DNA from: a candidate division CPR3 bacterium GWF2_35_18
GTDB taxonomy: Bacteria; Patescibacteriota; CPR3; GWF2-35-18
Direction: 5' to 3'
Length of the DNA stretch: 64,000 bases
Assembly: GCA_001771135.1 (NCBI GenBank)
Contig: MESW01000009.1
Coordinates: 23,436 to 87,435, forward strand
A program made the position numbers and the translations under genes. This document shows, piece after piece, positions 244-43,100 of the stretch. Within the stretch, counting starts at the first letter, position 1. Each line of letters starts with the position of its first letter. The notes under the pieces are model-generated. The model was not told the origin of the DNA and searched no databases. It worked only from the letters and a program-made list of their open reading frames with translations.

Positions 244-1005
244 ATGAAAAATAAAACCTCTATTATTTCATCAATTCTTTGGGCAGTGTTTTTTATCGGC
301 ATTCTTGAAGTTATGTTTATTTTAATAGAGAATAAGGACATAAATAACTTTTTCATTCTTTCTGGGTTGCTTTGTCTCACAGTTATCATAACTAGTATCA
401 GAACTTACCAACCCCGAATCGGATATTATCATGAAATTGCACCGTACCTAATTCATCCACTTTTCCTCCTTATTGGACTTATTAGCTTTATTATTTTTAA
501 TGATAATCCCTATTTAAGACAGATCGCTATTTTCTCAAGTTTAGTAGGATATTTAATCCTTTTTTCTGAAAACTATTCTGATCTTACTCATAAAGCTCAT
601 GATGGCGTGAAGTTTTTAATTGTCTTTTTTCTATATGATACGGTTTTTGAATCCGTCCATTATTTCAATACTGATCTTCTTATGATACCTCTTTTTATCG
701 GACTAATCTCTTTATTTTTATTCATGCATATGTTTTGGAGGCTAAAAGTTTTGGAGGATAAATATTTAGTTTTAGGTTTACTTTTTTCAACATTGATAGG
801 GACAATTTCATTTCTTGTTATTCAATATTATTTATTAAGTTCCTACCTCATTGTAAGTATTATCTTACTTACAATTTACTATGTATTCTGGGGAATATTA
901 CATCACTATATTCAAAAAAATCTAACCTTACATACCTTTTTTGAATATTTTCTGATTGCCGGAATTATTATCTCCATGTTTTTAGGACTCATTACCGGTT
1001 GGTAA
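244..1005 (+). CDS. Polytopic integral membrane protein of unknown function
   Basis: 253 aa with 7 or more hydrophobic helices; no catalytic motif recognised. Confidence 0.5.
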   Translation: MKNKTSIISSILWAVFFIGILEVMFILIENKDINNFFILSGLLCLTVIITSIRTYQPRIGYYHEIAPYLIHPLFLLIGLISFIIFNDNPYLRQIAIFSSLVGYLILFSENYSDLTHKAHDGVKFLIVFFLYDTVFESVHYFNTDLLMIPLFIGLISLFLFMHMFWRLKVLEDKYLVLGLLFSTLIGTISFLVIQYYLLSSYLIVSIILLTIYYVFWGILHHYIQKNLTLHTFFEYFLIAGIIISMFLGLITGW

Positions 1006-5125: not shown

Positions 5126-8100
5126 TTAAAAACAAGCCGTAGCCGGACTATGTAACTGAACATCATTTGTCCCATCACAATAACACATGTAATTACCAGT
5201 ATCGTTATAAAAAATCGTTCCTTCAGGGTAACCAGATCCACAAGGATCCGCAGTCACAGAAATTGGTTTTATCCCACCGTTTACTTCTAACTTCGTTTCA
5301 GGATTTGTCGTTCCGATACCGACGTTACCATTTGCTGAGATCATAAAATAATCATTTGTCCCAAACCCCGAAGACATTGAAATTTTGAAACTTCTATCTG
5401 TTATATCTCCTCCCATTACCCAATTAGTACCTGTTGATGGAGTATAATAAATAGTAATTCTTACGTGATCTATATATGCAGTTCTGTTTCCACCTCCGTC
5501 ATCTCTGGCTCTAATGGCTACACCAAAGGTTGAGTTATTAACTTGAGTGGCGGTAAGTCCTACCACACCCCATAAGTTACTACTGCCACCATATCCTGTA
5601 TAATCGTTGGGATCAGTAATTCCCCACTCCAAATCGGTTTGTAGATCGTTTCCAGAATAAACGTCATCAACTACAAGCATCACGGACTGATCAGTCACAC
5701 CACTACCTGAAGCATACCTTTCAAATTCTACGTATACTCCGTTTATAGTAGCATCAGCGGGAATAGTAAATCCAAAATCAGTTATTTTTAAATATTCAGT
5801 CGTATAACCGGTAGGCATTGTAGAAGATGTATATACATTATTACTTGAATATACATTTTGAGGATTAGACCAATCAGTCTGATTAGAAGCAGGAATTGAT
5901 TGTGCTAATGCTGGAGAATTGGCATCAGATGGCGAGACGGACGCCGGAGCATCTAGGAATACGATAGGATCGTATCCTGCTGCCACTATATGTAGAGGTT
6001 GGGATGGAGATGATGTCCCTAATCCTACATAACCACCATCTTCAATAAAAAGACCTAAATTCCCTCCATCATCAAATATTTGTAAACCAGATGCTGAGGA
6101 TGCTCTTAAAGTAGAAACATCAACATCATCTTCTAATGAAAATTCAGCAACATTAAGATCGAGATCATCACCGGCTGTATAACTGCTTCCTCCATCTAAC
6201 GCCGTCCACTCTTCGGCTGAATTTTTATACTCAATAGTTCCAGCATTGTCTCTAATACCATAACCAGATTCACCATCTGTAGAGCCAAAATTAAGATACC
6301 CACCTGCACTTACACCAACATTTCCAACAACGTCTAATTTATGATTTGGACTTGTAGTACCGATCCCAACGGCGCCAGTACTAGTAACAACAAAGTTATT
6401 ATTGACATCAAACAATTGTGAAGGATTGATATTGCCTACACCAAGTTTACCTGTATAGTCTAGTATCATTCTCTTTGTTATTGCACTGGATTGTGTTGTA
6501 TAAAAAACCATATTTGTTTCCGCCGGTCCCATGAGATTGCTCTCTATTCTTGATGTGACAGTTGTTCCCCATCCAAAATCTATTTGGGTTTTGTCAGCTC
6601 CTGCGTATCGAGAGCCCGTAAGCGCTAATTTTGATGTTTCTGATGATCCCGTAAAGGAGGCTAATGTATTTACTGATGAAATTACTGTGAGGGGATAACT
6701 AGGTGCTGTTGCTCCTATTCCAACATTTCCTTGTACAATAAGACTATCCGCTGGGGCTGTTAATACATCATAATTTGACCCAATTGCAACATTTCCATCC
6801 ACTGATAATAATGAGCCAGGATTATTTGATCCAATACCTATATAACCCGCGGCGCTGATATATATGTCGTCACCCGTAGCGTTTCGTGCAAAGGCTTGTG
6901 CTGCTCCACTTTTATAAATATAGAATTGACTACCGACTACTGTTTCTTCAAGTATTAAATAAGGATTGTTAGAAACAATACCTCCTCTAAAATTACTAAT
7001 GTTTTGAGCTGTTGTTAATACATTTTGATTTACTTGTAAACCACTAGGACTAGTAGTACCAATCCCCACGTCCCCATTAAAACTAACTAAATCGTTTGCA
7101 AAGTCACCCCAAATAAGTGGCGATACCGAGTTTGAGTTTTCAATGTAGAGTTTATCTGAACCGGTTTCTGCACTTCCGGCACTTGTTCCAATAAAAACAC
7201 TTCCACTACCTAGATTGCTGTATCCCGCACCCACACCTATTGCGACATTACTCCCCCCTGAAATGTTTTGGTAAAGTGCACTGCTTCCCAGTGCGATATT
7301 ATTACTTCCTGTTTGTAATGTATACAGTGGTCTATACCCAATGCCAATGTTATCGTCGCCGCTAGTAACTGCAGATAGGGGATAACTACCTATTGCGACA
7401 TTACTCTCGCCATTTGTTACTACATTTAGAGCTTTGTGCCCAATACCAATAAGCCCGGTTCCGGTAGTAGTTGTATTTCCGGCAAGAGATCCAATGAACT
7501 GATTAGTTATATCTGTTCCTAGGTTTAGAAATAATCGCCCTGTGTTATTAACATATCCCAAAGGAGTACCGCTACTGTTCTGCCACTCTAGAATATTGGC
7601 TGTTTGAGTACCATTAGCCGTCACGATTAGTTGTTGTGTGTCTGTCGTACCTAATATATGTAGTTTTGCGGTAGGATTTGTTGTTCCTATACCCACATTA
7701 CCACTACTTGTAATTGTAAAATTGTTATTTGACAAGCCACTGTTTAATCCAAAAAATGCACTGTTATCTTTAACACCCCAATATCCTGTTGTATCATTAT
7801 CACTTATCAAAATTTGCGCCAGATCATCCGTATTATAAAAACGTGCCACACTATCAGTTGTTTCACCGTTTACATCCAATCTATAAGATGGAGGAGAACT
7901 GTAAATACCTACATTTTTGCCAACGATATTAATCGAACTATACGAATTTGTTCCAATTACAAATCTATCGTTAGCATCTACAAATAATCTCCCCACTGAT
8001 ATGGGGGTACCTGCTCTCAAGACGCTAATTCCTCTATCGTTACCTGGCGTTCCTCCGGTAATTCCTTGATCTACATATAGTTGCGAAAGTGGAGAGGTTG

Positions 8101-10231
8101 TTCCAATACCCACATTCCCATCTTTATCTAAAACCATTTTCGTAGACACCGCAGCAGTACCGCTCGCTGTCCCAAATTCTAATCTTCCATAAGGATGTAC
8201 GGCATCAAAATCACTCTGTGCTATAACTCTTGCATATCCAGCCACATTCGAACCTGTTAATGATGTATCGTTAGAATAAAAATCTAATTCTCCTATCATT
8301 TGACCAATTCCGACGCCAGTATCAGTACGTTGAAGAGTCAAAATTGGAGATGAGCTACCTACATGCAGAATTGAAACAGCATTTTCAATACCAATACCAA
8401 AATTTCCACCACTTTCTATAATTGCTTTCTGTGCACTTCCAATAGTTGTCCCAGTACCAAAAACTAGATTACCATTTGAAGCATAATAACTTAAATAATA
8501 ATTTTGAGCTTCTCCATCAAAAATTATTCCAGTATCCTCTGCCCCATTGTCACCCAAAGTCAGGAATGGAGTCGTTCCTCCTATTTGAAGCTCTGTAGAA
8601 GGATTTGTTGTTCCGATCCCCACATTACCAGCAAAATATGAATTTGATGTTGCTGCAGAATAAATTGCATAACGATTCGTTCCAATATCAATAGAAGAAT
8701 GTAAATATATACCATACGAATTATCTACTGTTCCCCCATTTGAATAACCGTTAAGCAGTACTCCATACGCATTATTTATCGTTCCGCTAGAGTTTCCAAT
8801 CGATCCACGTAATAACGCTGCTTCTGCAATTGTTCCTCCACCAGAATTATTCATTTGCGCCCTATAATTATATGCTGAAGCTACATAACCAGATCCATAA
8901 TTGCTAAACATAGAGCTATTACCATATCCAACCGTTGCAATATTTCCATAATTAAACACCCCTGATGATAATCCATACATCCAATTTACGGTTCCATCAT
9001 TGGTATTTATTGATCTACTTGATATTCCAGTCATTCCATGTTGCGTATCTGTACCTGTAAATTCATTCACAAGTTGCAAACCTGTAACATAAGGAAAGCC
9101 AACCGTATCTCCCTCTGTTACGTTAGTATGTAAATAACTGGAATAACTTGATATATTACCATTTGTTATTCTCTCTAAATGAAACAATGATGTAGGGTTC
9201 GTCGTTCCAATCCCCACATTGTAACTTGTATCATCAGGATAAAGATTTGATCCCGAAAGTGTCCAAGGTCCTCCAGTCGAAGAGACATCTGTCCAGGAAG
9301 CCACTCCAGATCCATCGGTAGTTAAAACATATCCACTAGAAGCTCCTGACGCCATAGTAAGTGCTGTGATATCTACACTCCCTCCAGAAAGAGATCCTGT
9401 AACATTCCCGGTTAAGTTCCCGGAAAAAGAGGTCGCGGTAATACTTCCCCCATTGGTAAGATCATTGGTTCCGAGATTAATATCTCCACTCATCGTTCCT
9501 CCAGAAAGAGGTAGATAGTTGGAAGCAGTAATTGTGTTAGGAATCATATTATCCGTTAAAGAGTTATTAGGAAATTTGATAGTCCCAAATACTGTCAGAT
9601 TTGTGGTAGAGAGTGTTCGAATATTGGTAATATTATGATCGTTAAGTTTCACATTACCATTAATTGTCCCTCCAATTACAGGAAAGTATTTTGAAGCCGT
9701 AATGCTATTGGGAATCATGGCGTCGGTAATAGAGTTATTAGGTAAAGTCACTATTCCTAAAGTAGTCAGGTTGTTCACAGTAAGAGAAGGGTTGCCAGAT
9801 AATCCGGTAGCATTTCCAATCAGAGACCCTGTTACGGTTCCTTCTACATCTCCAGTAAGGTTACCTTCAAACTCTCCCTGAAAAAGATCGGCGATTAAAC
9901 TTCCCCAGACCTCTAGGTCTGTGGTTACAAATACCCTTTCTCTTGATTCCAGGAAGAGGTAATCATCTGTTACAATATGCATGTGCACATCATCATAGAT
10001 CTTTGACCCCCCTTGATTCAGATTGAAAGACATATACTTACCTTGATTGAAGGTCTCTGATCCCAGAGTAACCTCTGTTCCGGAGATATTAAGGTCTCCA
10101 ATAATGGATAGCTCTTCCGTAATTGTATAAGCATTTGTGATAAGTGGATTAATTAATACAAAGAAGGTGAAAAAGAATACCAAACTTATAATTGATAGAA
10201 ATAATAGTTGCTTTTGAGACAGTGTAAACAT
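5126..10231 (-). CDS. Giant (1701 aa) secreted repeat protein with phage tail-fibre-like repeats; putative adhesin
   Basis: N-terminal signal peptide (..LINPLITNA|YT); at least 11 dispersed copies of the motif GNVGIGTT(N/S)Pxx(K)L(H/E/D)V; N-terminal tandem repeats containing PLSGGTMSG and LTGNVTGSLSGG, typical of tail-fibre/beta-helix proteins. Confidence 0.7.
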   Translation of the reverse strand: MFTLSQKQLLFLSIISLVFFFTFFVLINPLITNAYTITEELSIIGDLNISGTEVTLGSETFNQGKYMSFNLNQGGSKIYDDVHMHIVTDDYLFLESRERVFVTTDLEVWGSLIADLFQGEFEGNLTGDVEGTVTGSLIGNATGLSGNPSLTVNNLTTLGIVTLPNNSITDAMIPNSITASKYFPVIGGTINGNVKLNDHNITNIRTLSTTNLTVFGTIKFPNNSLTDNMIPNTITASNYLPLSGGTMSGDINLGTNDLTNGGSITATSFSGNLTGNVTGSLSGGSVDITALTMASGASSGYVLTTDGSGVASWTDVSSTGGPWTLSGSNLYPDDTSYNVGIGTTNPTSLFHLERITNGNISSYSSYLHTNVTEGDTVGFPYVTGLQLVNEFTGTDTQHGMTGISSRSINTNDGTVNWMYGLSSGVFNYGNIATVGYGNSSMFSNYGSGYVASAYNYRAQMNNSGGGTIAEAALLRGSIGNSSGTINNAYGVLLNGYSNGGTVDNSYGIYLHSSIDIGTNRYAIYSAATSNSYFAGNVGIGTTNPSTELQIGGTTPFLTLGDNGAEDTGIIFDGEAQNYYLSYYASNGNLVFGTGTTIGSAQKAIIESGGNFGIGIENAVSILHVGSSSPILTLQRTDTGVGIGQMIGELDFYSNDTSLTGSNVAGYARVIAQSDFDAVHPYGRLEFGTASGTAAVSTKMVLDKDGNVGIGTTSPLSQLYVDQGITGGTPGNDRGISVLRAGTPISVGRLFVDANDRFVIGTNSYSSINIVGKNVGIYSSPPSYRLDVNGETTDSVARFYNTDDLAQILISDNDTTGYWGVKDNSAFFGLNSGLSNNNFTITSSGNVGIGTTNPTAKLHILGTTDTQQLIVTANGTQTANILEWQNSSGTPLGYVNNTGRLFLNLGTDITNQFIGSLAGNTTTTGTGLIGIGHKALNVVTNGESNVAIGSYPLSAVTSGDDNIGIGYRPLYTLQTGSNNIALGSSALYQNISGGSNVAIGVGAGYSNLGSGSVFIGTSAGSAETGSDKLYIENSNSVSPLIWGDFANDLVSFNGDVGIGTTSPSGLQVNQNVLTTAQNISNFRGGIVSNNPYLILEETVVGSQFYIYKSGAAQAFARNATGDDIYISAAGYIGIGSNNPGSLLSVDGNVAIGSNYDVLTAPADSLIVQGNVGIGATAPSYPLTVISSVNTLASFTGSSETSKLALTGSRYAGADKTQIDFGWGTTVTSRIESNLMGPAETNMVFYTTQSSAITKRMILDYTGKLGVGNINPSQLFDVNNNFVVTSTGAVGIGTTSPNHKLDVVGNVGVSAGGYLNFGSTDGESGYGIRDNAGTIEYKNSAEEWTALDGGSSYTAGDDLDLNVAEFSLEDDVDVSTLRASSASGLQIFDDGGNLGLFIEDGGYVGLGTSSPSQPLHIVAAGYDPIVFLDAPASVSPSDANSPALAQSIPASNQTDWSNPQNVYSSNNVYTSSTMPTGYTTEYLKITDFGFTIPADATINGVYVEFERYASGSGVTDQSVMLVVDDVYSGNDLQTDLEWGITDPNDYTGYGGSSNLWGVVGLTATQVNNSTFGVAIRARDDGGGNRTAYIDHVRITIYYTPSTGTNWVMGGDITDRSFKISMSSGFGTNDYFMISANGNVGIGTTNPETKLEVNGGIKPISVTADPCGSGYPEGTIFYNDTGNYMCYCDGTNDVQLHSPATACF

Positions 10232-10295: not shown

Positions 10296-11405
10296 TTATT
10301 CGCGTTCGAAGCGGAAAAGTCTTAGGGCTAAAGTGATGGAAATTATCAACCATCCACCCATAAAAAGAAGTTCTGTTTGAAGCTCAAAAAGATTCGCATC
10401 CTGCAAGGCGATTTTTCGCAAGGCTTCAATAAAAGGAGTAAGAGGTAAATAAGAAACGACATTTTTTATCACATCTGGTAAAGCCTCTTTCGAAAAGAAA
10501 ACGCCCGAAAGAAACATCATCGGCATCGAAACAACTTGAATCATTCCTTGAGCGGCATCCACGGTTTTGGCGACACCAGCCACCGCAAACCCTAAGCTTA
10601 AAAATATTAACTGCCCCAACAAACCGATAAAATAAAGATAAAAAATATTTCCAAAGATATGAACTTTGAAGATAAAAAGAGAGATCAAAATTATCAGAGT
10701 CATTTGGATCAAACTGATAAGAAGATTGGATAAAACAAAAGCCAACAGAAATGACCTTGTCCGAAGAGGTGTAGACATGAGCTTTCGTAAAGTATGTTTT
10801 TCACGAAAAGAAACAATACTCATAGCGATTCCAAACAATCCACCTTGCATCAGAGACATTCCTATTATTCCAGGAACTAGAACATCTAGATAATTAATAT
10901 TCTTGGATTCGATCTCCTGTTTTTCATAGGAAAAAACTTGAGGGGTTTGGAAAATCTGAATATTCATTCCAGACATAAATTGTTCAAGTAATCCAAAAAC
11001 AATCCCGTTTAACTGCACATTACTTTTGTCGTAAAATACCTGAATCGGCTCCACGGCAACACGAGAAGGTCCAGATTCGGTCATTTGTAAATTAAAATTC
11101 TGTGGAATTATGAAGACAAAGTCAAGATCTCCATCTAAAACAGCATTTTTCGCTTCTTCCTCATTTTGATAGTTATCGTCTATTTTCAAAACTTCAACTT
11201 TTTTTAAATTATCGACAAAATCTTTTGAGAATTCTGAATCAGCATTATCTATCAAAGCCACATTTGAGACACCCATCTTATCAAAATTAAAAAGTCCAAA
11301 AATCAGAATAAACATTATCGGAAAAAAGATCATCCAAAAAAGGGTATCCTTTTGCCTTAAAAACATTTTGATTCTGGCAATAAATAATTTCCAAAAAGAC
11401 TTCAT
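10296..11405 (-). CDS. ABC-2 type transporter permease
   Basis: N-terminal TM, ~190-aa extracytoplasmic domain, then 5 C-terminal TMs; directly downstream of an ABC ATPase with a 2-nt gap. Confidence 0.7.
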   Translation of the reverse strand: MKSFWKLFIARIKMFLRQKDTLFWMIFFPIMFILIFGLFNFDKMGVSNVALIDNADSEFSKDFVDNLKKVEVLKIDDNYQNEEEAKNAVLDGDLDFVFIIPQNFNLQMTESGPSRVAVEPIQVFYDKSNVQLNGIVFGLLEQFMSGMNIQIFQTPQVFSYEKQEIESKNINYLDVLVPGIIGMSLMQGGLFGIAMSIVSFREKHTLRKLMSTPLRTRSFLLAFVLSNLLISLIQMTLIILISLFIFKVHIFGNIFYLYFIGLLGQLIFLSLGFAVAGVAKTVDAAQGMIQVVSMPMMFLSGVFFSKEALPDVIKNVVSYLPLTPFIEALRKIALQDANLFELQTELLFMGGWLIISITLALRLFRFERE

Positions 11406-11407
11406 TG

Positions 11408-12205
11408 TTACTCCCTTAAACTTTTCCCAGTAAGATTTAAAAAAACATCCTCAAGATCAGCAAGCTGCCGGACTCTTTCTTTTTTAAATCCAGACTTCAA
11501 TAAATTTTCAATTAATTTTTGTGGGGTATCCAAAGTGATAATTTTACCCTCATCCATAATGGCCACTCGGTCACACAGAACCTCTGCTTCTTCCATATAG
11601 TGTGTAGTTAATATCACAGTTTTTCCTCTTTGTTTTAGCTTTTTGATTATTTCCCAGGTATGACGACGGGCTTGCGGATCAAGTCCAGTTGTAGGTTCGT
11701 CAAGAAAAATCACCTCTGGATCATTTACCATAGCTACTCCAATTGATAATCTCTGTCGTTGTCCACCTGAAAGCTTCTTAACCAAAGTATTTTTCTTCTC
11801 CTGTAAATCAAAATCATCTATTATTTCTGCTAAATCTTTCTGATACTTGTAAAATGAAGCAAAAAGATCCAGAGTCTCACAAACTGTCAGCTCTTCAAAA
11901 AATGCCGATGACTGTAATTGCACTCCAATTCTTTCTTTTAACTCTTTGATATTTGTACGAACATCAAATCCTAAAATCGAAATTTCTCCATTACTGATAC
12001 TCCTTAAGCTTTCCATCATTTCCACCGTTGTAGTTTTCCCTGCTCCATTTGGACCCAGTAGACCAAAAACTTCGTTTTTGTAGACCTCAAAGGAAATCCC
12101 TTTTACGGCTTCGAGCTCACCGTTATATTTTTTATGCAGATCTTTTACTTTGATAACAACTTCTTTTTTCATATTAACTATTACTAAATAAAGATAAGAA
12201 AACAA
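11408..12205 (-). CDS. ABC transporter ATP-binding protein
   Basis: Walker A GPNGAGKTT; signature LSGGQRQRLSIG; Walker B IFLDEPTTGLD; true start probably MKKEVV at 12172. Confidence 0.9.
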   Translation of the reverse strand: MFSYLYLVIVNMKKEVVIKVKDLHKKYNGELEAVKGISFEVYKNEVFGLLGPNGAGKTTTVEMMESLRSISNGEISILGFDVRTNIKELKERIGVQLQSSAFFEELTVCETLDLFASFYKYQKDLAEIIDDFDLQEKKNTLVKKLSGGQRQRLSIGVAMVNDPEVIFLDEPTTGLDPQARRHTWEIIKKLKQRGKTVILTTHYMEEAEVLCDRVAIMDEGKIITLDTPQKLIENLLKSGFKKERVRQLADLEDVFLNLTGKSLRE

Positions 12206-12249: not shown

Positions 12250-13293
12250 TTATACTTTCAAAATATCCATCGCCACTTTATTCACAAAACGGTAGTGAAT
12301 TACTTCCATAAATGCGTCGGCAAAAAAATCCGCAGCATTTCCCATTCCTTGAGCTAATCGTAATACCCTTTTCTGAATATTTTGGTATTTCAATATATTT
12401 TGAATCTTTGGAGTATCGTATTCTGGAGCAATAATTTTTCGAGCAACCTCTTCACCTGTAACAATAGCATTATAAATCCCCTCTCCTGTTAACGGAGCTG
12501 TAAAACCACCAGCATCTCCAATTAAAAACATATTTCCAAACTCAAATCCTTGATAATCATAGTTTATAGGAGCACTTTCATACTGACATTTTGAAAGATC
12601 TATTTTCTTACTTTTAATGAAATCTTCTAATTTAGGCTTAATATCGCTAATCTTTGATCTTTGCGTAACATCTATTCCAGTTCCAATTGATGTAAAATTC
12701 TGGTGAGGAAATATCCACAGATACGTAAACCCATATTTTTCAACATTAACAAATAATTCCATATCTTGCATCTGTTTAGGCACTACATAGTGAAAAGCTA
12801 CTAAAAGATTCTTAGATTCCAAATTAAGAGATCGGCGTACTACCGAACTTGCGCCATCTGCACCTATCAAATAATCAAAACTAACTTCTTGTCCGCTATT
12901 TAGATAAACTTTTTCTTGATCTACTTTTATCACCGTACTAGTAACTAAAGGAACTCCCAACTTCTTAACTATTGAGTATTGCCATTTACCTAAAACTTCT
13001 CGATCAATTGTATAGGCAAGAGGAATTTCAATCCTAACTCTACTTATTTTGTGATGACTATGGAGAAGAACTGAGGAAAATTCTCGAGAAATAATATCTT
13101 TTGGAATACCTGATTCTAAATCTTTATGAGTTAATCCACCGGCACAAACTTTCTTCCCAATCACTTTATTCTTTTCTAAAATAACGACTTCTTTTCCTGC
13201 CTCTTTTAGAATTCTAGCTGCAGCTAATCCTGCTGGTCCTGCTCCAATGACGATAACTTCATAATGAGATTTAAGCTTATTTTTGGGAGTCAT
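12250..13293 (-). CDS. Geranylgeranyl reductase family FAD-dependent oxidoreductase
   Basis: FAD-binding VIVIGAGPAGLAAARIL; GGR-type motif FLIGDAGGFTAPLTGEGI. Confidence 0.7.
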   Translation of the reverse strand: MTPKNKLKSHYEVIVIGAGPAGLAAARILKEAGKEVVILEKNKVIGKKVCAGGLTHKDLESGIPKDIISREFSSVLLHSHHKISRVRIEIPLAYTIDREVLGKWQYSIVKKLGVPLVTSTVIKVDQEKVYLNSGQEVSFDYLIGADGASSVVRRSLNLESKNLLVAFHYVVPKQMQDMELFVNVEKYGFTYLWIFPHQNFTSIGTGIDVTQRSKISDIKPKLEDFIKSKKIDLSKCQYESAPINYDYQGFEFGNMFLIGDAGGFTAPLTGEGIYNAIVTGEEVARKIIAPEYDTPKIQNILKYQNIQKRVLRLAQGMGNAADFFADAFMEVIHYRFVNKVAMDILKV

Positions 13294-13684
13294 TTTTTAT
13301 TTCTGTCTTGATACTTTTTTTCTCTAATAATAACCCAAGCAATATACTGTTTATCGGAATTGATAAATACCGAAAACCAATTTCTTTCATATAGGTTACA
13401 AAAGTCATATCTTTATTGAAAGACAACACGCCCACAATATCGAGCAAAATTCCCAAAACGAAACCAAAAACACCAATCAAGATACCATCAATTAAAAAAT
13501 GGCTCTTTTTATCCATATAATAATAATAGGATAATCCACACCAAGTAAGCATTCCAATCACAATCATAATGGTTTTGAAATAATGGATATCTGTCTGCAT
13601 CAAAGGGAAAAAAAGTAGACTAAAAGCATAAGGAATTGCCCACATTAAAAAAGTAATCAGCAAAATTGTAAGGTATTTTTTCAT
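13277..13684 (-). CDS. Small integral membrane protein, 4 TM
   Basis: 135 aa hydrophobic; 17-nt overlap with the downstream reductase gene suggests coupling. Confidence 0.5.
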   Translation of the reverse strand: MKKYLTILLITFLMWAIPYAFSLLFFPLMQTDIHYFKTIMIVIGMLTWCGLSYYYYMDKKSHFLIDGILIGVFGFVLGILLDIVGVLSFNKDMTFVTYMKEIGFRYLSIPINSILLGLLLEKKSIKTEIKNDSQK

Positions 13685-13694
13685 ATTTAATCCT

Positions 13695-14525
13695 TTAATT
13701 TTCTTTCAAAGATTTTAGCTCAGCAATAATATCTTGAATAATATCTTTAGCTTCCTGAACTTCCTGTTTTGCCTTCTGTAAATCTTGCTTTCCCGCCTCT
13801 AAATAAGCCTCAGATTCAGTAGTATCTTCAGCAGGTTCCATAGCTCGAAAATTACTTTTGGCAGAATCAAGATAACCTTGAATTTCTTGGAATTTTGCCT
13901 GTAAATTATCAACTAGACCCTCAACAACAGTAGTATCTTTTCCTGCGTTTTTATATTCTTCAATAGCTATTTCTATTCTCGTAATTACTTTTGCCTCATT
14001 CTCGGATAAAACGTATTCTGCCCATCCAACGGCGCGCAGCCCTCGATCTTTGGGGAGCTCAACAATATAAACACGGTAATCATAAAAAATATTCCTTATT
14101 AGATCTTTTAAAGAAGCTAAATCAGTAGCGCTTTCTATAGAAGCTTTAAGTGCAACTAAACCGTCATAACTTGTCTGCATATTCGTCACAATTTCATCGC
14201 GATTTTCTTCTGACAATCGCAAAGTATTCCCGAGAATTTCCTGGGCTTTGGTCAGATCTTGCAGTCGAACATCAATCAGCTTAATTGCATATTCCTTTAA
14301 CATTTGAAGCCTATCTTCAGCTAAAGAATTTCGGAAATTTTCCAGTGTTTGCTGTAGTTCTGCTTGATTCTCTTGAAGCTGTGTCCTAATTTCACTCACG
14401 TATTGATTTTTATTTGAAGAAGAAGTGCTTTGAAGGAAATCTCCAAAAGCTAAAGATGATTGAGGAGTAAATAATATTAAAGCAAAAATAATGCTTAATA
14501 TGGTTTGAGTTTTGTTTTTCTTCAT
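13695..14525 (-). CDS. Secreted coiled-coil protein
   Basis: Signal peptide (..SSLAFG); heptad-like Q/E/L-rich sequence. Confidence 0.5.
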   Translation of the reverse strand: MKKNKTQTILSIIFALILFTPQSSLAFGDFLQSTSSSNKNQYVSEIRTQLQENQAELQQTLENFRNSLAEDRLQMLKEYAIKLIDVRLQDLTKAQEILGNTLRLSEENRDEIVTNMQTSYDGLVALKASIESATDLASLKDLIRNIFYDYRVYIVELPKDRGLRAVGWAEYVLSENEAKVITRIEIAIEEYKNAGKDTTVVEGLVDNLQAKFQEIQGYLDSAKSNFRAMEPAEDTTESEAYLEAGKQDLQKAKQEVQEAKDIIQDIIAELKSLKEN

Positions 14526-14573
14526 ATCTTTAGTCCTTTTTAATCTTTATGTTTTAATTCTAAAAATCTTTTA

Positions 14574-14981
14574 CTAGATAGTAGGCATGGTATCATCTTG
14601 TGTTTGATAGTCCTCAATATCAACTAGAGAATTTTCTAAATCTACTAGAGCATCATCTAACTCATCATTAAGATTATTCAACTCTATGATTCCCTCACTT
14701 TGATTATCTTGTTCTGTTTTTGTTGTCGCCTCCGAGGTTGCTTGTTCAATATCAAAAGATCGCTGTGCTGACTGGGAAGAGGTATTATTATCTTCGGAAG
14801 TTGAAGGTTTACTATTTACCAAAAAAAATATTACTACTATAACCAAAAAGATAAAAATTAAAAGAAAGAGAATAATTAGAACAGAAAAACCTTTTTTTGT
14901 TTCTGGAACATAGTTTTGACTAGAAGCAGCTTCCTGCCACTTTGATTGATTTTGAACATTGTTTATATTATTTTCTTTCAT
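14574..14981 (-). CDS. Single-pass membrane protein with acidic C-terminal tail
   Basis: Central TM (LIILFLLIFIFLVIVVIFFLV); D/E-rich C-terminus. Confidence 0.45.
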   Translation of the reverse strand: MKENNINNVQNQSKWQEAASSQNYVPETKKGFSVLIILFLLIFIFLVIVVIFFLVNSKPSTSEDNNTSSQSAQRSFDIEQATSEATTKTEQDNQSEGIIELNNLNDELDDALVDLENSLVDIEDYQTQDDTMPTI

Positions 14982-35104: not shown

Positions 35105-36325
35105 CTACTCGTATCTCAAAGCATCAAGAGGTTTCAGCTTATGTGCTCTAATAGCTGGATAAAAACCGGTAATTAATCCAATGAATAAACCGATCAAGAT
35201 AATATAAAAAACAATGTATGGAGGAGTGTAATAAAAAGAAACAGGAGAAACTCCTCTTCCCAAAGCAATTATTTGAAAAGATTTTTCTAAAATAAATCCC
35301 AAAACGAAACTCAAAATAATTCCTAAAATTGAACCTAATAAACTTATTGTAATAGATTCAATGAAAAATAAAATAAAAACTGAACTATTTCTTGTTCCCA
35401 AAGCTTTCATGATCCCAATTTCTCTCATCCGGTCTAAAAGAGATATTGTCAACGTATTAAACATACCTAATATGGCAATTGTAACTCCCACAAAACCGAT
35501 AACCATTAAAATAATTCTAAAGGTCGTAAAAACGGTCTGAATCTGTTCTAAAGTATCAAAAGCAGAAGAAGTTGTATACCCCATAGCTTCAATCTTGGCG
35601 CGCACTTCAGTTAATCTTTCCTGATCACTAAGAAGAACTTTAACCTTTGAATAACTGGGATTATTAAGTTCGGGTAAGGAATCAAAAAAAAGATATGCTG
35701 TTGGACTCTCTTTCTGATTTTTTCGATCTGTCACAACGCTTTCAATTGTTAAATCTTTCTTCCTCGTTTGTATTGCCAGACCATCTTCACTTTTTATAAT
35801 ATTTGTAGGAAATATTATTTCAAGTTCAGCTTTCTGACCTATAAAATTATTAACATCCTCATTCTTGGTTCCTAGGATATTTGGAATAATCTCATTTACA
35901 ATTAAATTAGGAGAACTAAGCTCTGCAAAGGATTTCCCGGCAACTAAGCTCTTGTAACTGTATTTTAGATAATTGTTATCCATAACTAATACTGTAATAT
36001 CAAGCACTGAACCACCTAACTTTAATTTACCCACACAATTGATTTGAGGAATGATCGTTTCTACTCCTTCAAGTTGTTTAATTTTATTTACTGAATCACT
36101 ATTAAGAAGTAAAACTGCTGATTGTTCACTGTCTACATCTATACTTCTTAATGCATCTAATCCAACTGTCTGTTCTTGAACCAATCTTTCTAAACCATAA
36201 CCTATTGAAAGAAGAATAATTACAAAAGCCATTCCGATAGCAATAGCAAATATAGTAAAAAAACTACGGCTTTTCCGATTTAAAAGGTTTAAAATAGCAA
36301 TTCGTACTAATTCAAAAAACTTCAT
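35105..36325 (-). CDS. MacB/FtsX-type ABC transporter permease
   Basis: TM1, large extracytoplasmic domain, then 3 C-terminal TMs (FtsX fold); 406 aa. Confidence 0.8.
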   Translation of the reverse strand: MKFFELVRIAILNLLNRKSRSFFTIFAIAIGMAFVIILLSIGYGLERLVQEQTVGLDALRSIDVDSEQSAVLLLNSDSVNKIKQLEGVETIIPQINCVGKLKLGGSVLDITVLVMDNNYLKYSYKSLVAGKSFAELSSPNLIVNEIIPNILGTKNEDVNNFIGQKAELEIIFPTNIIKSEDGLAIQTRKKDLTIESVVTDRKNQKESPTAYLFFDSLPELNNPSYSKVKVLLSDQERLTEVRAKIEAMGYTTSSAFDTLEQIQTVFTTFRIILMVIGFVGVTIAILGMFNTLTISLLDRMREIGIMKALGTRNSSVFILFFIESITISLLGSILGIILSFVLGFILEKSFQIIALGRGVSPVSFYYTPPYIVFYIILIGLFIGLITGFYPAIRAHKLKPLDALRYE

Positions 36326-36332
36326 GGTAGAT

Positions 36333-37157
36333 TTAGACTTCTGGCATTAATTGATTTCTCAAAAACTGTTGGATTTCATGAATACTTTCGTGAATTCCTT
36401 TTACTTCACCATCAAGTAGATGTAAAACTCTATTCGCTCGTAATAGAAATGAATAATTATGTGTCACCATCACAATTGTTCTTTTACCTTTTCGATTAAT
36501 CTCGGTAAGCATTTTAATTATCTCTTCTTCAGATTTACTGTCAAGGTTACCGGTAGGCTCATCTAGAAATAGAGTCCAAGGATTTTTTACCAAAGCTCGA
36601 GCCAAACTGACTTTCTGTTGTTGTCCTCCTGAGAGTTCAGTAGGAGCATAATTCCTAAATTTACTCAAACCCATTTCTTCTAAACGACGTAATGCTTGAT
36701 TGATGGCATTCCTTCGGCTCTCTCCTGTCAATATTAAAGGATACGCCACATTATCTAAAACTGATAAACTTCTTATCCAAGTTGGCTGTTGATACACAAC
36801 ACCCAATCTTTTTGCTCGTATATCAGCTCTTTCACTTTCATTTAAAGAATATGTTTTGGTATCACGCAAAATGACTTCTCCAGAATCTGGTTCTTCCAAT
36901 CCCAAAATCACATTAAGTAAAGTTGATTTTCCACAGCCTGAAGGACCAAAAATAATTAAAAAATCCTTACTATAAACTTTGAAAGATATATCTTTTAATA
37001 TTGGTATTTTATTGTTACTAACCTGAAAGGATTTTTCTAAATGATTAACTTTAATAACCACGGTAGAATGATGCTTTTTCTTCACCTTTATTGAATGAAG
37101 TTCTCGTTTCTTTTTCAAGTCCAAATTAGAAGTTAAACTTTTAGTAGTTTTCATCAT
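36333..37157 (-). CDS. MacB/LolD-type ABC transporter ATP-binding protein
   Basis: Walker A GPSGCGKSTLLNV, signature LSGGQQQKVSLARAL, Walker B LFLDEPTGNLD. Confidence 0.9.
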   Translation of the reverse strand: MMKTTKSLTSNLDLKKKRELHSIKVKKKHHSTVVIKVNHLEKSFQVSNNKIPILKDISFKVYSKDFLIIFGPSGCGKSTLLNVILGLEEPDSGEVILRDTKTYSLNESERADIRAKRLGVVYQQPTWIRSLSVLDNVAYPLILTGESRRNAINQALRRLEEMGLSKFRNYAPTELSGGQQQKVSLARALVKNPWTLFLDEPTGNLDSKSEEEIIKMLTEINRKGKRTIVMVTHNYSFLLRANRVLHLLDGEVKGIHESIHEIQQFLRNQLMPEV

Positions 37158-37174: not shown

Positions 37175-40100
37175 TTATTCTCCAAATAACCATCCAAAAG
37201 AACGACGCAAAGATTCAAGGACTAACTCTAATATATTCTCTGCTGGTTCATCCGTAACTACGATATTATTATCAGAAATCGTTAGATTTCCGGCACCATC
37301 TTCGGAAAGAATCCGAAAATGATAACCCTGAGATGGATTCAAATCCGGAATTATTATAAGGTGAGTTGTAACTAGATTTGAATCTTCTTTAGTCTTTTGA
37401 GAATAAACAGTCTTTGAACCAATACCTTCTCCAATACCTAAATCATATTCTATTTGACTGCTTGCAAGCTCATCTGTTTCCCAACCAATAATAAGTTGCG
37501 CTGTTGCTTTTGATCCTTGTCCGATAATTCTAGTATCTATCGTAATATTTGAAATCATTGGAGGACGACTATCAATCGCAGTTGTAAAAGTAAATAGATT
37601 CGATTCTGTCTGAGATCCAAGAGAATCCCGACCATATACAATAATTTCATATGTAGTATTATCAAAAAGAGAACTGATTATTAGCTCATGATTAGTTTCC
37701 AACTTTGCCGTCGAAACTTCTTCTATTCTAGAATCGTTTCGTTTATTATAACGAATAATTCCAGTAGTAGGCACATTTGTTTGCCAAGTTACTTTAACTG
37801 TTCCCGTAGCTTTATCTTTCTGTTGTTCAAGTTCTACATTAAAAACTTTAGGATAAACCGCGGTTGTAAATAAGTGCTCTTCTCCAATCAAAGTATTTCC
37901 CTCTTCATCAATTCCTGATACTCTTAATTCATAATTACTTGCAGGAATTAATTCATCCAACCTCACTGTGTGAACAGTAATTCCGCCAACAGACATATCT
38001 TCAATAATTCTCTCCTGTCCCCCTTCAGATTTTAAATAAATCAGTGAAGTCGACGGGACCTCAGTTATCCAAGAAACGATGCAAGAACTATATTTAATAT
38101 CTGTTACTTCTAAATCGCGAATCCGAGGTAACTCACCGGTAGTAAAGGTATTATCCTCACTAAAAGAATTTTCCGTTTCATAATCAATTAAGTCAGGATC
38201 ATCTAGACTTTGAATACGATAATGATAGGTAGTTGAAGGCATTAATCCCCTAACTACAATCTCATGTTTTATAACTGGATCCCACTGTCCTTGGGTACGA
38301 GTATAAATTTCATTGGTCCCAATTTGCACAAAACTATTTGAGAGCCGATCAGTTTCCCATGTAATCGTAGCCGTCGTCGAACCAGTATTAACATGAGGAG
38401 CAATAACAATTGTCGGTGGAGTGCTATATTTACCTGTTGGTCTTCGACTCACTATTGTAGAATAAGCACTCTCTTTACCCGCATTATCTTCGGCGGTTAT
38501 CTTATATGAATAAGTAATTTCATTATCTAATCCTGAATCAAGATATCCCAAAGAAATGACCTCTGCAATCTGTTGATAATCTTCTCTCTTATTTTTACGA
38601 TAAATATTATAATGATCGATCTCTCCAAGAGCAGGAGCTATAAAACGAACTGTCAGAGCATAATCATCAAGGTCACGATTACTAGAATCTATGATAGTTA
38701 CATTTGTGGGAATTCCTGGAGCGATTGTATTAGCAGTAAAATCAACAGAAGCATAATTGTCATAGTTGAAATTTCCGGCACTATCAATCGCTAACACATA
38801 GAAAGTATTAGTACCTTGCTGTGTTGCATAAGGACCTTCTGGTAGTTCTGTATCTTCTATTTCACTTATATTATTTTCATTTGGTTCTTGATTAATAGAA
38901 TAATAATATGAACTAATAACAACGCCAATATCACTCGGAGCATTCCAAGAGAAAGAAAAACTGTTCTGATTATTTGAGCTTGGTGTTACCGTTAGATTTG
39001 TCGGAGCTGAAGGAGCGTCAGAAGTCGTAAAACTATCTTCTTCAGAATAAGCTACATTGTTATCTTCATCCTCACAGCGGATACGATAATAATAAAGGGT
39101 GTCACGTTTTAAACCCACAACTGTTACTTCATGAGCAACAGCCTCTTCTCCTTTACCTTGTTCCCAATAAGCATCATTTTGATTCTCACGATATTGCACA
39201 TATCCTTGACATTCGCGTTCCATAGTCCAACTTATAGTAGCAGATAGAATATGTGTTTCAACCGATGGCGAAATAAGTATCTCAGGTGGGGTTGTGTACC
39301 GACCGGTTGGAATATCGGATACGACAGAAGAATATGCACTTTCGGCTTGAGCATTATCTTCAGAGGTAATTCGATAATAATAAGTAACCGTATTACTTAA
39401 AGTGGTATCTAAATAACCAGTGCTTTGAGTAGTTGCTATATTAGAAAAATTAATTCCATCCGTCGAGCGATAAATATTATAATGCTCTATTCCCGACCCT
39501 ATATTAATAGGAGCTTCCCAAGTCAAAGTAAGTTGATATTTTTGAGTCTCACGATTAGAAGAATCTGTAATCTGAACATTCGTTGGGATTCCCGGAGCGC
39601 TAGTTTGAGCTTCAAAAGTTTGAGATCCGTAAGCATCAAAGTTCACATTTCCAATATTATCTTCGGCTACTATATAAAAAGTATTAATGCCTTGCTTTGT
39701 AGCAAGAGGTAAAGGTCCAATTGTTCTCGTTGCCGTTTCACTTATGGTTGTTTCGGTAGAGTTATACGCGTCTGGTTCTTCGTTAACACTGTAGTAATAT
39801 TTTGCGATTGTACCCAAATATGTTGCTGGCTCATTGAAACTCACCGTAAAACAGTTATCCAAAGAACTACAATTAGTATCTTCTATTGTATCAGCTGGAG
39901 TAATAACAATATCCAAAGGAGCAGAGGGAGCAGAAGCATTGTAATAATAGTTCACCTGGGCATAACTAGAATTTAAATTTCCGGCATTGTCTTTTGCTCG
40001 AATGTAAAAAACATTTTCTCCATTTTGATAAGAAGGAATATTGGCAATTGAAGTTACTTCCAAACATTGATCATTATAATATTGACTCTCTGAATCGGCA

Positions 40101-43100
40101 GTACCGAGTTTATAACAATATCCCCAGACCCCTGAATCTAAATCTGATCCTGACGGCCAATAAAAGTCAAAAGAATTTACAGAAGAGTAACCTACCGGAT
40201 TAACAGAAACTACAACCGGATTTATCGGTTCTGATTGATCAAAATGATAAGTCCATAAAGTTTCCGCCAGGCTTACTGAACCAGCATTATCTTTAGTTTT
40301 TATTCGTAAATAATAAATTCCGTCTTGATCTAAAGCAGTCTCTGGAGGAAGCTGAAATGAAACTTCTCCCGAAACTGGATCTTCGACAAAAGTACCAGCA
40401 ATTTCTGGATCAGCAGTTTCGTTCTCTCCAAAATATACATAATAACCATCAACACCTGATGGACCTTCCCCACTATCACTAGCTCCACCTACTTCTCCAG
40501 ATCTTGGCCAGGTAAAATAAGGACGACTACTATTAGCCCAATAATCATTTACAAAAACACGTTCTTTTGTATCATCATAAAAAGCAGAAATATCCGTAGG
40601 ATTTGTAGGAGCCAAATTATCGGGAGTGTAATTAAACCTTACTCCAGTTAAAGAAGGAGATTGGTAATTACCTGAAGAACTAGTATAAACTGCTTTAAGA
40701 AAAATAAAACGATGAGGATCAGATTGAATTTCATTACCAGAAAGAGATAAATAATCTCCCTCACTACAGGTATCGGTAATAAAATTTTTGGTACAAGTGG
40801 AAACAGCTAGACTTCCATCATTCAAAGTCTGAGTTAATGCAATATCATCACCAGTACTCCAATCGGAAACCGCAGTTAGATCAATTTGACCACTGTAATA
40901 TGTTCCCGTATCTTCATATCTACCAATAACATCCGCCTGACTATGTGTCAATAATCCCTGATAATATAAATCTGTAATCTCTGAAGCAGTTAAAGCTGAA
41001 TCAAAAACACGAAGATCGGATAATACAAAATCTCCATTGTTACTTCCATAACCTATGGTTATGCTTTGAGTGTAATCATTTCCAGACACATAGTTTCCAC
41101 TCGTTCCAACTACGTTATTTACATAAACTTTTAACATATTTCCTGTTGCTGACCAAGTTCCCACTACATGAGCCCACCTATCCTGAGTAAAACCACTACT
41201 ATTTAGTAGTGATGATGAATATGTATTATTGCTATCCAACCTTCCATAACAACCATGGACTGTTTCGTAATATAACCCCAAATTCATGTTTGTCCATGTA
41301 GGATCTGTGCCATTAACTCTCAAAATTGTAAATTTTCCTCCGTTACCATGAACCGAACAAGAAACATTCAACTTGATCCAAGCGCTAATAGATCCTTCAT
41401 TTTTATTTATATTAGTATTTGGATAAGACAGAGCAGCCGATGTTCTGGTACTTGTACTATCATGAGTCGTACCCGTCCAAGCATAACCAGTGCCGAAAGA
41501 ACCATCAGCATATGATGTCGTAAATCCTAACTGTTCTAGCTGTACTCCATCCACATAAATAGTTTTTCCTGCCATAACTTGAACTCCATAATAAAGAGAA
41601 GCATCAATGGTAGTTGTTGAGTAGGTTAACCTCCACCAACCTCCTCCCATATCTGTGTAAGTACTAGGAGTAACAATAGTGCTTCCAAAATAAAGATTCG
41701 CCACAGTTGCATCTACTGTCCCTCCGATACTCCCACTAGTTCCGTTATACACATAAGCACTGAGAGTATGAGTAGCAGTAGAATTTGGATCAATTGAGAT
41801 TGCATATTCATCTTGAAAATCTTGACCAATGAGTTTAACTGACTTACTCCCAAATTTGTAGTACGGTATAGTTGTATTTTCGCTAATAGATGAGGTGACA
41901 AAAGAAGAAAAAGTAGCATCAGCCTGTTGACCACCTGTCGAACTTGATCCCCAATATGCGGTATTGGGAACATTTGTAAAATTTGTCGGATCATCTAGCA
42001 CAACACGTTCAACACCATCAACCCATAACGACATGCGAGTTGAAGAATATCTCAATTCCATATGATAAGTTGTTCCCGCTATAATCGATCCGTATGCATT
42101 CCAGGCAACTCCATAATCGGTCCCATCGCTATCAACACTAAATATCTGCAATGAAGAATTATCACTCCAATAAATTCCAAACGAATTACTCGCATCAGCT
42201 TGAAATCGGACAACATAGCACACACCACCAAAGCTATACATTGTTCCCGCACTATGTCTTGGCGTGTATTTAAATTTCACAACCCCATTTGTAGCAGAAA
42301 GTCCTGTAATTGGTTGAGTAAGTGTATCCGCTCCATCCACTCGAAGACCAGTAGTTTCAGTGGAATTTGTTTGATTTGCCGGCGTTACTGTTAACGAGAC
42401 ATCGGTTAATGACACCACGTATGTATCATCCACATAAGCTACAATCGAACCGTTATACCACTTCATGAAGCCAAAATACGTACCCAAATAACTTGATGAG
42501 TTTTTTACTACCCGATGGTACACACTCCAATCTCCAGTTATATAGTGCGAAGGACCTGTTTGATTTACCTCTGATAAATGCTGTAGGGGTTGAGTGTATT
42601 GGTTATACATAAATCCAAAAGTATCCCCTGATTCTCTTTTCCCCCAACCTCCTTGAGCATAAAATTTTCCTCCAGAATATGAATGGTTAAAATACACCCC
42701 ATCACTTGTCTCATCACCTGTGAATTTTGCTGCACTCAAACCAGAATGCACTATCGTAGTTTCTTGCGTTACTTCACCCACTTCAGCTCCAGAATTAGAC
42801 CATCCGGTCGGCAGCCAGGGATCACCTGATCCAGATTCAAGAGAAGGATTACTAACTAGATTTGTATACACCTCTACTTGATGCCAGTAACAAGTGTCTC
42901 CTGTGGATGAATCGTTATACAATTCAATTATTTCCGAAGTATTTCCCGATGGTGCTTCCCATGTAAATAAAAGCACGTCCGGATCTGTTCGAGTTGAGGT
43001 ATTTGTTCCTGCCAAACTGGTTATCAACACTCCATTGTTATTATTCCAAACCTTAATAGTTGGCATACAGGATCCATCTGAGTGAGCAATAGCCCGAATT

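Follow-up and report, generated by a model that had tools for sequence, protein, structure and literature searches.

Does a tail-fibre-like protein encoded in the genome of a bacterium of the candidate phyla radiation (CPR) belong to a phage or to the cell itself, and what would the cell do with it? This question is raised by a 1701-residue protein (OGB62563.1, A2X44_04230) of the ultra-small groundwater bacterium GWF2_35_18 (candidate division CPR3), encoded in a stretch of 64,000 nucleotides (nt) of contig MESW01000009.1 (positions 23,436 to 87,435), which we call the window and whose numbering is used below. We lean towards the view that its gene codes for a surface fibre, exported by Sec, of the mosaic adhesive trimer (MAT) or phage tail-fibre type and that it belongs to the bacterium itself. 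Since the solved structures closest to it are those of the fibres by which Bdellovibrio recognises prey, it would most likely be a surface fibre that sticks to sugars on another cell. The coordinates of all features are collected in Table 1.

The shaft carries the capping-loop motif of MAT fibres

Eleven copies of a GxVGIGTTxPxxxL motif are found in the protein with the relaxed form [GSYN]x[VILF]G[IVL]Gx(2-3)[PV], while 2000 shuffled versions of the protein averaged 0.115 and never exceeded 3, and the other reading frames of the window gave none. The exact form GNVGIGTT[NS]P occurs four times (amino acids [aa] 535, 705, 844, and 1635) and the form G[NDA]VGIG[TA]T[NSA]P seven times. The copies are dispersed, lying 25 to 235 aa apart, and their DNA is only 60 to 84% identical over 25 to 60 nt; no tandem arrays were detected with Tandem Repeats Finder.

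A profile of 40 columns, built from the 11 motif units and searched against 177,635 PDB sequences, matched only 8ond, 8oml, 8ojn, 8ol4, and 8on4, all of them MATs of Bdellovibrio (E values of 2e-24 to 2e-4). The best match was Bd2133 (8ond; 2.1e-24, in three stretches), and the 1701-aa protein searched alone matched 8ojn and 8ond. These structures are tip fragments of fibres described by Caulton et al. (2024; PMC10769870), who reported 21 MATs in Bdellovibrio bacteriovorus. MATs consist of a signal peptide, a conserved β-rich N-terminal domain of about 130 aa, an intertwined trimeric β-helix with capping loops, and a variable tip (PMC10769870). The capping-loop sequences listed for them, including NVGIGATAPTAKLE of Bd2133, and AVGIGTTNPSGILH, show the same motif as the CPR3 fibre (Supplementary Fig. 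18 of PMC10769870). Together, the profile matches and the listed loops give the motif a defined structural meaning and identify the protein as a fibre of the MAT type lacking an S74 domain.

The shaft is also related to phage fibres. It matched two PHROG families of tail fibres, phrog_9942 (1e-20, aa 773-1034) and phrog_18345 (6.5e-17, aa 1276-1422), and a tblastn search of 50,697 phage genomes returned 55 records that matched aa 454-1265 with 23 to 36% identity (best E value of 2e-13). The matched phages were mostly cyanophages and pelagiphages, and their genes were annotated as tail fibre, virion structural protein, or chaperone of endosialidase. Cyanophage structural proteins matched aa 909-1103, spanning a block of N-x-A-I-G repeats that is 35 to 42% identical to the long repeat array of another protein (P0003); Pfam YadA_head had no match in the 1701-aa protein. 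The motif profile did not reach the structures of the T5 and K1F fibres at E ≤ 10. Peptidase_S74 (PF13884), the chaperone domain that ends many such fibres, had no match at E ≤ 1 and its SDxRxK motif is absent from the 1701-aa protein, in which Pfam and NCBIfam found nothing above threshold. An earlier note, made from the letters of this DNA, had claimed at least 11 copies of a GNVGIGTT-type motif, a tail-fibre-like nature, and the lack of S74; all three are borne out, the first with the relaxed pattern.

A search of 5.8 billion proteins returned 58 homologs, nearly all of 1000 to 3000 aa and with up to 23 motif copies. Those with a named source come from Roizmanbacteria, Patescibacteria, Woesearchaeota, Margulisiibacteriota, and other lineages, and about a third of the homologs (about 17 of 58) carry PF13884. 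Motif-rich giant proteins are common in CPR and DPANN metagenomes, where they are often labelled “tail fiber domain-containing.” One of the homologs, a protein of 2972 aa from a Patescibacteria group bacterium (P0014), has a precomputed match to the intein family PF14890, and the intein-like insert appears to lie directly after a capping-loop motif (GNVGIGTTAPTQRLHVLGQ followed by CVTGDTLL).

The gene is cellular

Upstream of the fibre gene and on the same strand lie genes for a FAD-dependent oxidoreductase and for an ABC ATPase and ABC-2 permease; downstream, also on the same strand, are those for a phosphoenolpyruvate (PEP)-utilising enzyme, a NUDIX protein, and a cyclophilin. Beyond these, on the opposite strand, are genes for a MiaB-like radical-SAM enzyme and a DUF5656 protein. 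No phage genes (integrase, capsid, terminase, tail, or baseplate) turned up in the roughly 10 kb to each side of the gene, either in the window or in contig L001.

The N-terminus of the fibre, examined by sequence inspection, carries a lysine (K7), a hydrophobic stretch of 19 residues (aa 9-27), and then NPLITNA followed, after a cleavage-like point, by YT, a segment that is kept in variants with a differing hydrophobic core. It could be a signal peptide, an uncleaved membrane anchor being less likely. The fibre gene has a GC content of 0.39, against about 0.33, with the excess confined to codon position 2; at codon position 3 (GC3) it has 0.244, within the range of its neighbours (0.19 to 0.335). 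The composition therefore reflects the amino acid content (Gly 13%, Ser 11%, Thr 11%, and Asn 9%), and a recent horizontal transfer, which the raised GC had led us to suspect, was rejected.

These observations bear on the possibility that the protein is a fibre of a virion or tailocin, or the cargo of a mobile element, and thus a phage gene. Phage relatives exist for every one of its modules, and a 714-aa protein of the same architecture adjoins an integrase on an IMG/VR contig (L007). Yet the surroundings of the gene are free of phage genes and made up of an ABC transporter, the PEP-utilising enzyme, NUDIX, cyclophilin, and MiaB; its paralog, described below, sits between genes for cysteinyl-tRNA synthetase (CysRS) and EamA on one side and CvpA and TatD on the other; a signal peptide would be unexpected in a virion fibre assembled in the cytoplasm; and its GC3 is native. 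We thus regard a phage gene as very improbable. A prophage was rejected on context, given the housekeeping genes at both fibre loci, and an S74 phage fibre because S74 is absent and neither paralog locus has a module of virion structural genes. The signal peptide and the cellular, non-prophage nature proposed by the earlier note are upheld by these results, the former as a signal-peptide-like start.

The reading of the gene itself is unambiguous as to strand, since the plus-strand translation of the same interval is riddled with stops. Scans for promoters and terminators found no excess of sites over shuffled sequences. A 2015 assembly of this organism has the gene in two pieces, one coding for 289 aa (P0210), which carries the annotation “Cell wall surface anchor family protein,” and one for 1409 aa (KKP69330.1). 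P0210 departs from the frame of the window after NVTG (aa ~280), and the region of the frame break (window ~9340-9400, minus strand, aa ~280-293) has no homopolymer tract at the site. The split is an assembly error or a strain-level indel.

Likeness to known systems

Of the 21 MATs of B. bacteriovorus, 13 end in an S74 domain and 8 do not; MATs are displayed on the surface, and one of them binds bacterial O-antigen glycans (PMC10769870). The CPR3 fibre resembles those without S74, such as Bd2133 and Bd1334, in its signal peptide, its Gly/Thr/Ser-rich shaft of about 1000 or more aa, its NVGIGTTxPxxKLx loops, its lack of S74, and its β-sandwich-type domain towards the end, as well as in being encoded by chromosomal genes that are not prophage-borne. 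Its paralogs, like those of MATs, are alike proximally and different distally. Of the traits that define MATs, a signal peptide (by inspection), a capping-loop shaft, and an alternative tip are found in it. Unlike MATs, the CPR3 fibre has an N-terminal domain that is not detectably related to theirs, it is longer (1701 versus about 1000 aa), and its carbohydrate-binding-module (CBM)-like domain is not terminal, being followed by a shaft unit and a cap with four cysteines (four-Cys). The organism also differs, being a presumably monoderm CPR bacterium, whereas Bdellovibrio is a diderm predator.

Judging by homology to the MATs, the CPR3 fibre would be a trimer. A monomeric β-helical or β-solenoid adhesin of the passenger type, in which the motif is merely a turn element, would fit the Gly/Ser/Thr/Asn-rich composition, since such solenoids can be monomeric, and the trimer is deduced from homology alone. 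We consider it decidedly unlikely, because the motif lies in trimeric fibres in all five solved structures matched (PMC10769870) and because the relatives often end in S74, a trimer-specific chaperone.

With S74-type phage fibres (T5 pb1 and K1F endosialidase) and those of cyanophages and pelagiphages, the protein shares shaft modules, N-terminal repeats whose relatives include proteins with Phage_fiber_2, and a CBM-like domain present in phage structural modules. It differs from them in lacking S74, in having a signal peptide, in lying outside a virion module, and in an identity of only 23 to 36%. With YadA-family adhesins it has in common the character of a repetitive, β-rich, and (here by homology) trimeric surface fibre; its N-x-A-I-G block resembles their head repeats, and a protein sharing its four-Cys module (P0094) has true YadA_head repeats. 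The CPR3 fibre nevertheless gave no match to the head, the stalk, or the C-terminal membrane anchor, and an outer-membrane barrel would make no sense in a monoderm. Accordingly, a trimeric autotransporter was rejected, as no Pfam match to YadA_head, stalk, or C-terminal YadA anchor was found at E ≤ 1.

Giant surface proteins are known in CPR genomes and are thought to mediate host attachment (PMC8080830; PMC10633639). Those of Vampirococcus lugosii and Southlakia are, like the CPR3 fibre, large, secreted or membrane associated, encoded in reduced CPR genomes, and proposed to act in host recognition, but they carry WD40, PKD, integrin, fibronectin, and similar domains. A tail-fibre or MAT-type architecture is not mentioned for such proteins in PMC8080830 and PMC10633639, and the MAT survey covers predators, Omnitrophota, and bacteria of the Fibrobacterota-Chlorobiota-Bacteroidota (FCB) group, with Patescibacteria absent from its main text and supplement (PMC10769870). 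Hence, the kind of fibre is already known, as its likeness to MATs indicates, while its lineage is new, as are the base module and the arrangement of the tip, with an internal CBM-like domain and a four-Cys cap.

A base module shared by paralogs with different shafts

The N-terminal module comprises a CPR3-specific domain (N1, aa 35-112), GxxTG spacers, two 57-aa repeats (aa 164-220 and 221-277, identical at 21 of 33 core positions and 25 of 57 overall), and a junction that runs from GYVLTTDGSGVASW to PWTLSG. The 57-aa unit occurs in six to seven tandem copies in another protein (P0211), and a protein with a match to Phage_fiber_2 (P0233; PF03406, 3.6e-14) matches aa 237-295 of the fibre. Outside CPR3, the only relatives of the module that were found match its repeat part. 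A related-locus search of metagenome and genome contigs with the N-terminal module returned nothing.

The closest nonidentical match, P0002 (1084 aa), is 100% identical over aa 1-334 and then only about 30%, with the change exactly at motif copy 1. Its 90% cluster includes OGB63811.1 (A2X44_05280), from the same genome as the fibre. Another member (P0079) lies in a distinct housekeeping locus, in the order CysRS-EamA, fibre, and CvpA-TatD, and its DNA is homologous to the window from the start codon over about 1030 nt at 79% identity, where the homology ends. The shared base and the separate locus show that a minimum of two paralogous fibres exist in CPR3, alike in their base module but not in their shafts. 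The paralog has no jelly-roll domain, and its cap is divergent, ending in GTCDANTEGGMYYDASMNEPCFCDGVNWVQF.

The base module exists in two types, A and B, which are 79% identical and have near-identical blocks at aa 25-112 and 232-340; over the first of these, 86 of 88 residues are identical in the two CPR3 paralogs. In public assemblies, both base types are found joined to both bodies, which suggests, without proving it, gene conversion between the fibres: the same-genome paralog carries the type B base, and several of the mosaics stem from short-read or protein-level assemblies.

A variant of the fibre on a 45-kb contig (P0063) lacks 51 aa, with endpoints exactly at the two D6 direct repeats, whose spacing of 153 nt corresponds to an in-frame deletion of 51 aa. 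This variant is a concrete case of repeat-mediated length change. Two claims of the earlier note thus need amendment. It had seen an N-terminal tandem repeat with a period of about 40 aa and a recurring PLSGGTMSG: the repeat exists, but its period is 57 aa and PLSGGTMSG is found once, its counterpart in the other repeat being PVIGGTING. It had also regarded the internal repeats as a substrate for recombinational length variation, which holds in the one case of P0063, where D6 lies in the N-x-A-I-G repeats, and not for the GNVGIGTT copies, which are too diverged in DNA for an event of that type.

An unannotated, phage-associated CBM-like domain

The jelly-roll domain and the four-Cys module were aligned and modelled separately. 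In structure prediction, aa ~1440-1600 modelled confidently as a CBM-like jelly roll that can be superposed on known CBMs, with structural matches such as the CBM32 domains of AlyQ (7d2a) and NanJ (2v72). No match was found in Pfam and NCBIfam, F5_F8_type_C and CBM profiles included. At 7 to 17% identity to these CBM32-type modules, the domain of the fibre has conserved motifs of its own, its invariant residues clustering in W.NP.N, NFGF.IP, YGGSS.LWG, and YIDH.RI.VYY. A word-indexed search returned five homologs. In one of them (P0100), the C-terminal sorting domain (CTD) of the type IX secretion system (T9SS) is found at the position equivalent to the four-Cys module, and another (P0093) has a full copy of the jelly roll and a second, partial one with segments aligning out of order.

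Relatives of the domain were found at 223 IMG/VR viral loci (L016-L095 among them), with 33 to 49% identity. The viral proteins have no signal peptide and range from 180 to 1665 aa, often with the domain at the extreme N-terminus. Of the two viral contexts looked at, one gene lies beside that of a major head protein (L016) and the other between tail-fibre genes (L039). This viral distribution and the fold together indicate that the jelly roll is an unannotated, phage-associated, CBM-like module. Glycan binding by it is putative and may reasonably be expected from the modelled fold.

A widespread C-terminal module with four cysteines

Directly after motif copy 11, the protein ends in VTADPCGSGYPEGTIFYNDTGNYMCYCDGTNDVQLHSPATACF-COOH. 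Within this four-Cys module, D-P-C, F.N.T, C.C.GTND, and A-C-F are invariant in 28 sequences. A HMMER search of 1.84 billion representatives found it in 541 proteins at E ≤ 1e-3 (272 at E ≤ 1e-10), and in nearly all of the best 150 of the 541 the match reaches the last residue of the protein. Among the carriers inspected, the C-terminus is AC[FYW] in 144 of 153, and a hydrophobic, signal-peptide-like N-terminus is present in 123 of 140. These carriers have a median length of 382 aa, almost none has a Pfam domain, and they are otherwise unrelated. The module thus appears to be an unannotated family present in at least 541 clusters of proteins predicted to be secreted (P0090-P0367 among them), and its four cysteines, together with the universal signal peptides, argue for an extracytoplasmic location. 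AlphaFold2 modelled it with three short strands and a predicted local distance difference test score (pLDDT) above 90; a search for fold relatives gave no significant structural match.

Three carriers are informative. P0094, a small secreted protein of 455 aa, has a collagen-like GXY run and YadA_head repeats (1.7e-13) in addition to the four-Cys module; the collagen triple helix and the YadA head are both obligate trimers. P0098, a small protein from another genome, is encoded in a cellular locus beside a protein with S-layer homology (SLH) domains. The third is the 714-aa protein of L007, one of nine IMG/VR contigs with the module, which has a signal peptide, six motif copies, and matches to phrog_9942 and phrog_18345. 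Its gene lies beside that of an integrase; the neighbours scanned included none recognisable as coding for a capsid protein or terminase, and the protein may be the cargo of a mobile element, not a virion fibre. Look-alikes of the module free of cysteines (GMFRYNSTLNQFEGYKNTGW) occur in the Phage_fiber_2 protein P0233.

There are three candidate roles for the module, namely a trimer-registration knob that would replace S74, a binder of a conserved ligand, and a sorting tag. The last would make the final 47 residues a C-terminal sorting or attachment signal, following the logic of the T9SS CTD or PEP-CTERM, and not a tip or folding nucleus. The strict C-terminal position and AC[FYW]-COOH ending of the module, the signal-peptide-like N-termini of carriers that are unrelated and almost without Pfam domains, and the T9SS CTD at the equivalent position of P0100 are all in keeping with such a signal. 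It is doubtful, though it deserves consideration: the module has no hydrophobic segment and was modelled with confidence as a small compact domain, the three contexts examined revealed no conserved partner gene (only generic ABC transporters were common), and in fibre-type carriers it directly follows the capping-loop motif, where relatives have S74 or a tip domain.

Proposed mode of action and points against it

In the mechanism that we propose, the N-terminal hydrophobic segment would carry the chain across the membrane by the Sec pathway and then be cleaved after TNA or kept as an anchor. The base module of about 300 residues would stay near the cell, through an uncleaved anchor or a component of the envelope. 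Three chains would intertwine into a long β-helical shaft, with each GxVGIGTTxPxxxL forming a capping loop at the edge of a module. At the far end would come the CBM32-like jelly roll, one more shaft unit, and a four-Cys knob, probably stabilised by disulfides, where relatives have the S74 chaperone. The tip region would bind glycans on the surface of another cell, presumably the host, and tether the two cells. Diversity would arise as paralogs swap the parts that lie beyond motif copy 1 and as repeats give rise to small deletions. Export, trimerisation, orientation, glycan binding, and the role in host attachment are what we infer. A passage of PMC12206443 states that cultivated Patescibacteria are all epibionts; with this, the homology to MATs, and the CBM-like fold near the tip, an adhesin for a host or partner cell is plausible.

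The fibre might instead serve as a general adhesin of the surface coat, a matrix, or a substrate, binding environmental polysaccharide, mineral-associated organics, or sister cells and not a host. A CBM-like fold is typical of proteins that bind polysaccharides generally; the terminal module is conserved in numerous small secreted proteins that are otherwise unrelated, which points to a shared ligand or structural role; and the literature yielded no evidence on any CPR3 host. Such a general adhesin is nonetheless unlikely, as the relatives closest to the fibre among characterised proteins serve a predator and phages in cell recognition, and a conserved base with a swapped distal part is the pattern of host-range determinants.

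Several observations weigh against a MAT-type fibre that attaches the cell to a host. Deletions of single MAT genes had little or no predation phenotype (PMC12428579). A search with aa 30-335 found no relatives of N1 outside CPR3, so that any homology of this domain to its MAT counterpart is conjectural, and the cell-wall anchor motifs LPXTG and SLH are absent from the 1701-aa protein. The CBM-like fold is a generic one, with only 7 to 17% sequence identity to its structural matches, and several mosaic variants, coming from short-read or protein-level assemblies, are possible chimeras. The four-Cys module, the most distal element, is conserved rather than variable, and only 35 of 153 carriers have the capping-loop motif, which makes its role at a fibre tip uncertain. 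Finally, a search of the literature on CPR3 biology gave nothing relevant to lifestyle or host.

Features of the gene and other genes of the window

Table 1. Features of the fibre gene, with positions in the window
Feature	aa	Position (nt)	Strand	Remarks
Complete coding sequence of the fibre protein	1-1701	5126..10231	minus	ATG at 10231, stop codon 5126-5128
Signal peptide or N-terminal membrane anchor	1-34	10130..10231	minus	Hydropathy and cleavage-like site conserved among variants
N-terminal module common to paralog	35-334	9230..10129	minus	Identity to P0002 100%, to P0079 79%
Two 57-aa repeats	164-277	9401..9742	minus	PNNS[IL]TDxMIPNxITASxYxPxxGGTxxG...
Shaft	335-1439	5915..9229	minus	10 of 11 motif copies; PHROG, PDB, and phage tblastn matches
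Motif copy 1	337	9194..9223	minus	YNVGIGTTNP; paralog breakpoint
Motif copy 2	535	8600..8629	minus	GNVGIGTTNP
Motif copy 3	705	8090..8119	minus	GNVGIGTTSP
Motif copy 4	844	7673..7702	minus	GNVGIGTTNPTAKLHI; aligns with 8ojn and 8ond capping loops
N-x-A-I-G repeat block	930-1045	7097..7444	minus	Ends KLYIENSNS..PLIWGDF; matches P0003 array and cyanophage proteins
D6 direct repeat copy 1, 24 nt		7235..7258		22 of 24 identical to copy 2
D6 direct repeat copy 2, 24 nt		7388..7411		153 nt from copy 1
Motif copy 5	1053	7046..7075	minus	GDVGIGTTSP
Motif copy 6	1129	6818..6847	minus	GYIGIGSNNP
Motif copy 7	1168	6701..6730	minus	GNVGIGATAP
Motif copy 8	1261	6422..6451	minus	GKLGVGNINP, degenerate
Motif copy 9	1286	6347..6376	minus	GAVGIGTTSP
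Motif copy 10	1400	6005..6034	minus	GYVGLGTSSP
β-Sandwich domain	1440-1600	5432..5914	minus	Galactose-binding-like (CBM32-like) jelly roll, unannotated
Last shaft unit	1601-1654	5270..5431	minus	Holds motif copy 11 (aa 1635, nt 5300-5329)
Four-Cys module	1655-1701	5129..5269	minus	VTADPCGxGYPEGTIFYNDTxNYxCYCDGTNDVQxHxPxxACF-COOH

The window holds a second giant gene (37175-46297, minus strand), which encodes a protein of 3040 aa with four Laminin_G_3 (ConA-like lectin) stretches, fibronectin-III and purple-acid-phosphatase-N-type immunoglobulin (Ig) domains, and a hydrophobic segment at the N-terminus. The capping-loop motif is absent from this protein, and the GC content of its gene, 0.38, is raised at codon position 2 like that of the fibre gene. 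This is probably another surface protein. Genes for an ABC ATPase and a MacB/FtsX permease lie downstream of it (35105-37157, minus strand), and the ABC ATPase and ABC-2 permease upstream of the fibre gene occupy 10296-12205 (minus strand). The gene of the small four-Cys protein P0098 likewise adjoins ABC and MacB/FtsX genes and that of the SLH protein (L005, 4762-6805). The adjacency of surface-protein genes and ABC transporters may be a coincidence, since the locus of the fibre paralog has no such transporter.

The DUF5656 protein (244-1005, plus strand) was identified with an E value of 3.6e-05, just over the gathering score. Three consecutive small open reading frames at 13277-14981 (minus strand), of 135, 276, and 135 aa, had no Pfam match above threshold; among their products are a multipass membrane protein, a signal-peptide-bearing coiled-coil-like protein, and a protein with a single transmembrane segment and an acidic tail.

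Implications

Taken by itself, the protein adds another example to a large and established class of tail-fibre-like surface proteins. To our knowledge, apart from the type IV pili of Saccharibacteria, little is understood of how ultra-small CPR bacteria locate and grip their hosts, and the gene is a concrete, testable candidate for host attachment, encoding a homolog of phage receptor-binding fibres and of the Bdellovibrio fibres for prey recognition, with a tip region that could be expressed. Its paralog looks like a natural cassette swap. The two unannotated modules, the CBM-like one that is common in phage structural genes and the four-Cys one at the C-terminus of secreted proteins, merit family definitions.

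As a more speculative proposal, which we hold tentatively, CPR and also DPANN episymbionts might use phage-derived, MAT-like trimeric fibres as determinants of host range. The base of such fibres would be constant and lineage specific, the distal shaft and tip cassettes would be exchanged among paralogs and with phages, and the four-Cys module would be an undescribed knob for folding or registration that is independent of S74. If this were true, the host specificity of uncultivated CPR bacteria would be readable, and perhaps predictable, from tip domains shared with the phages of their hosts.

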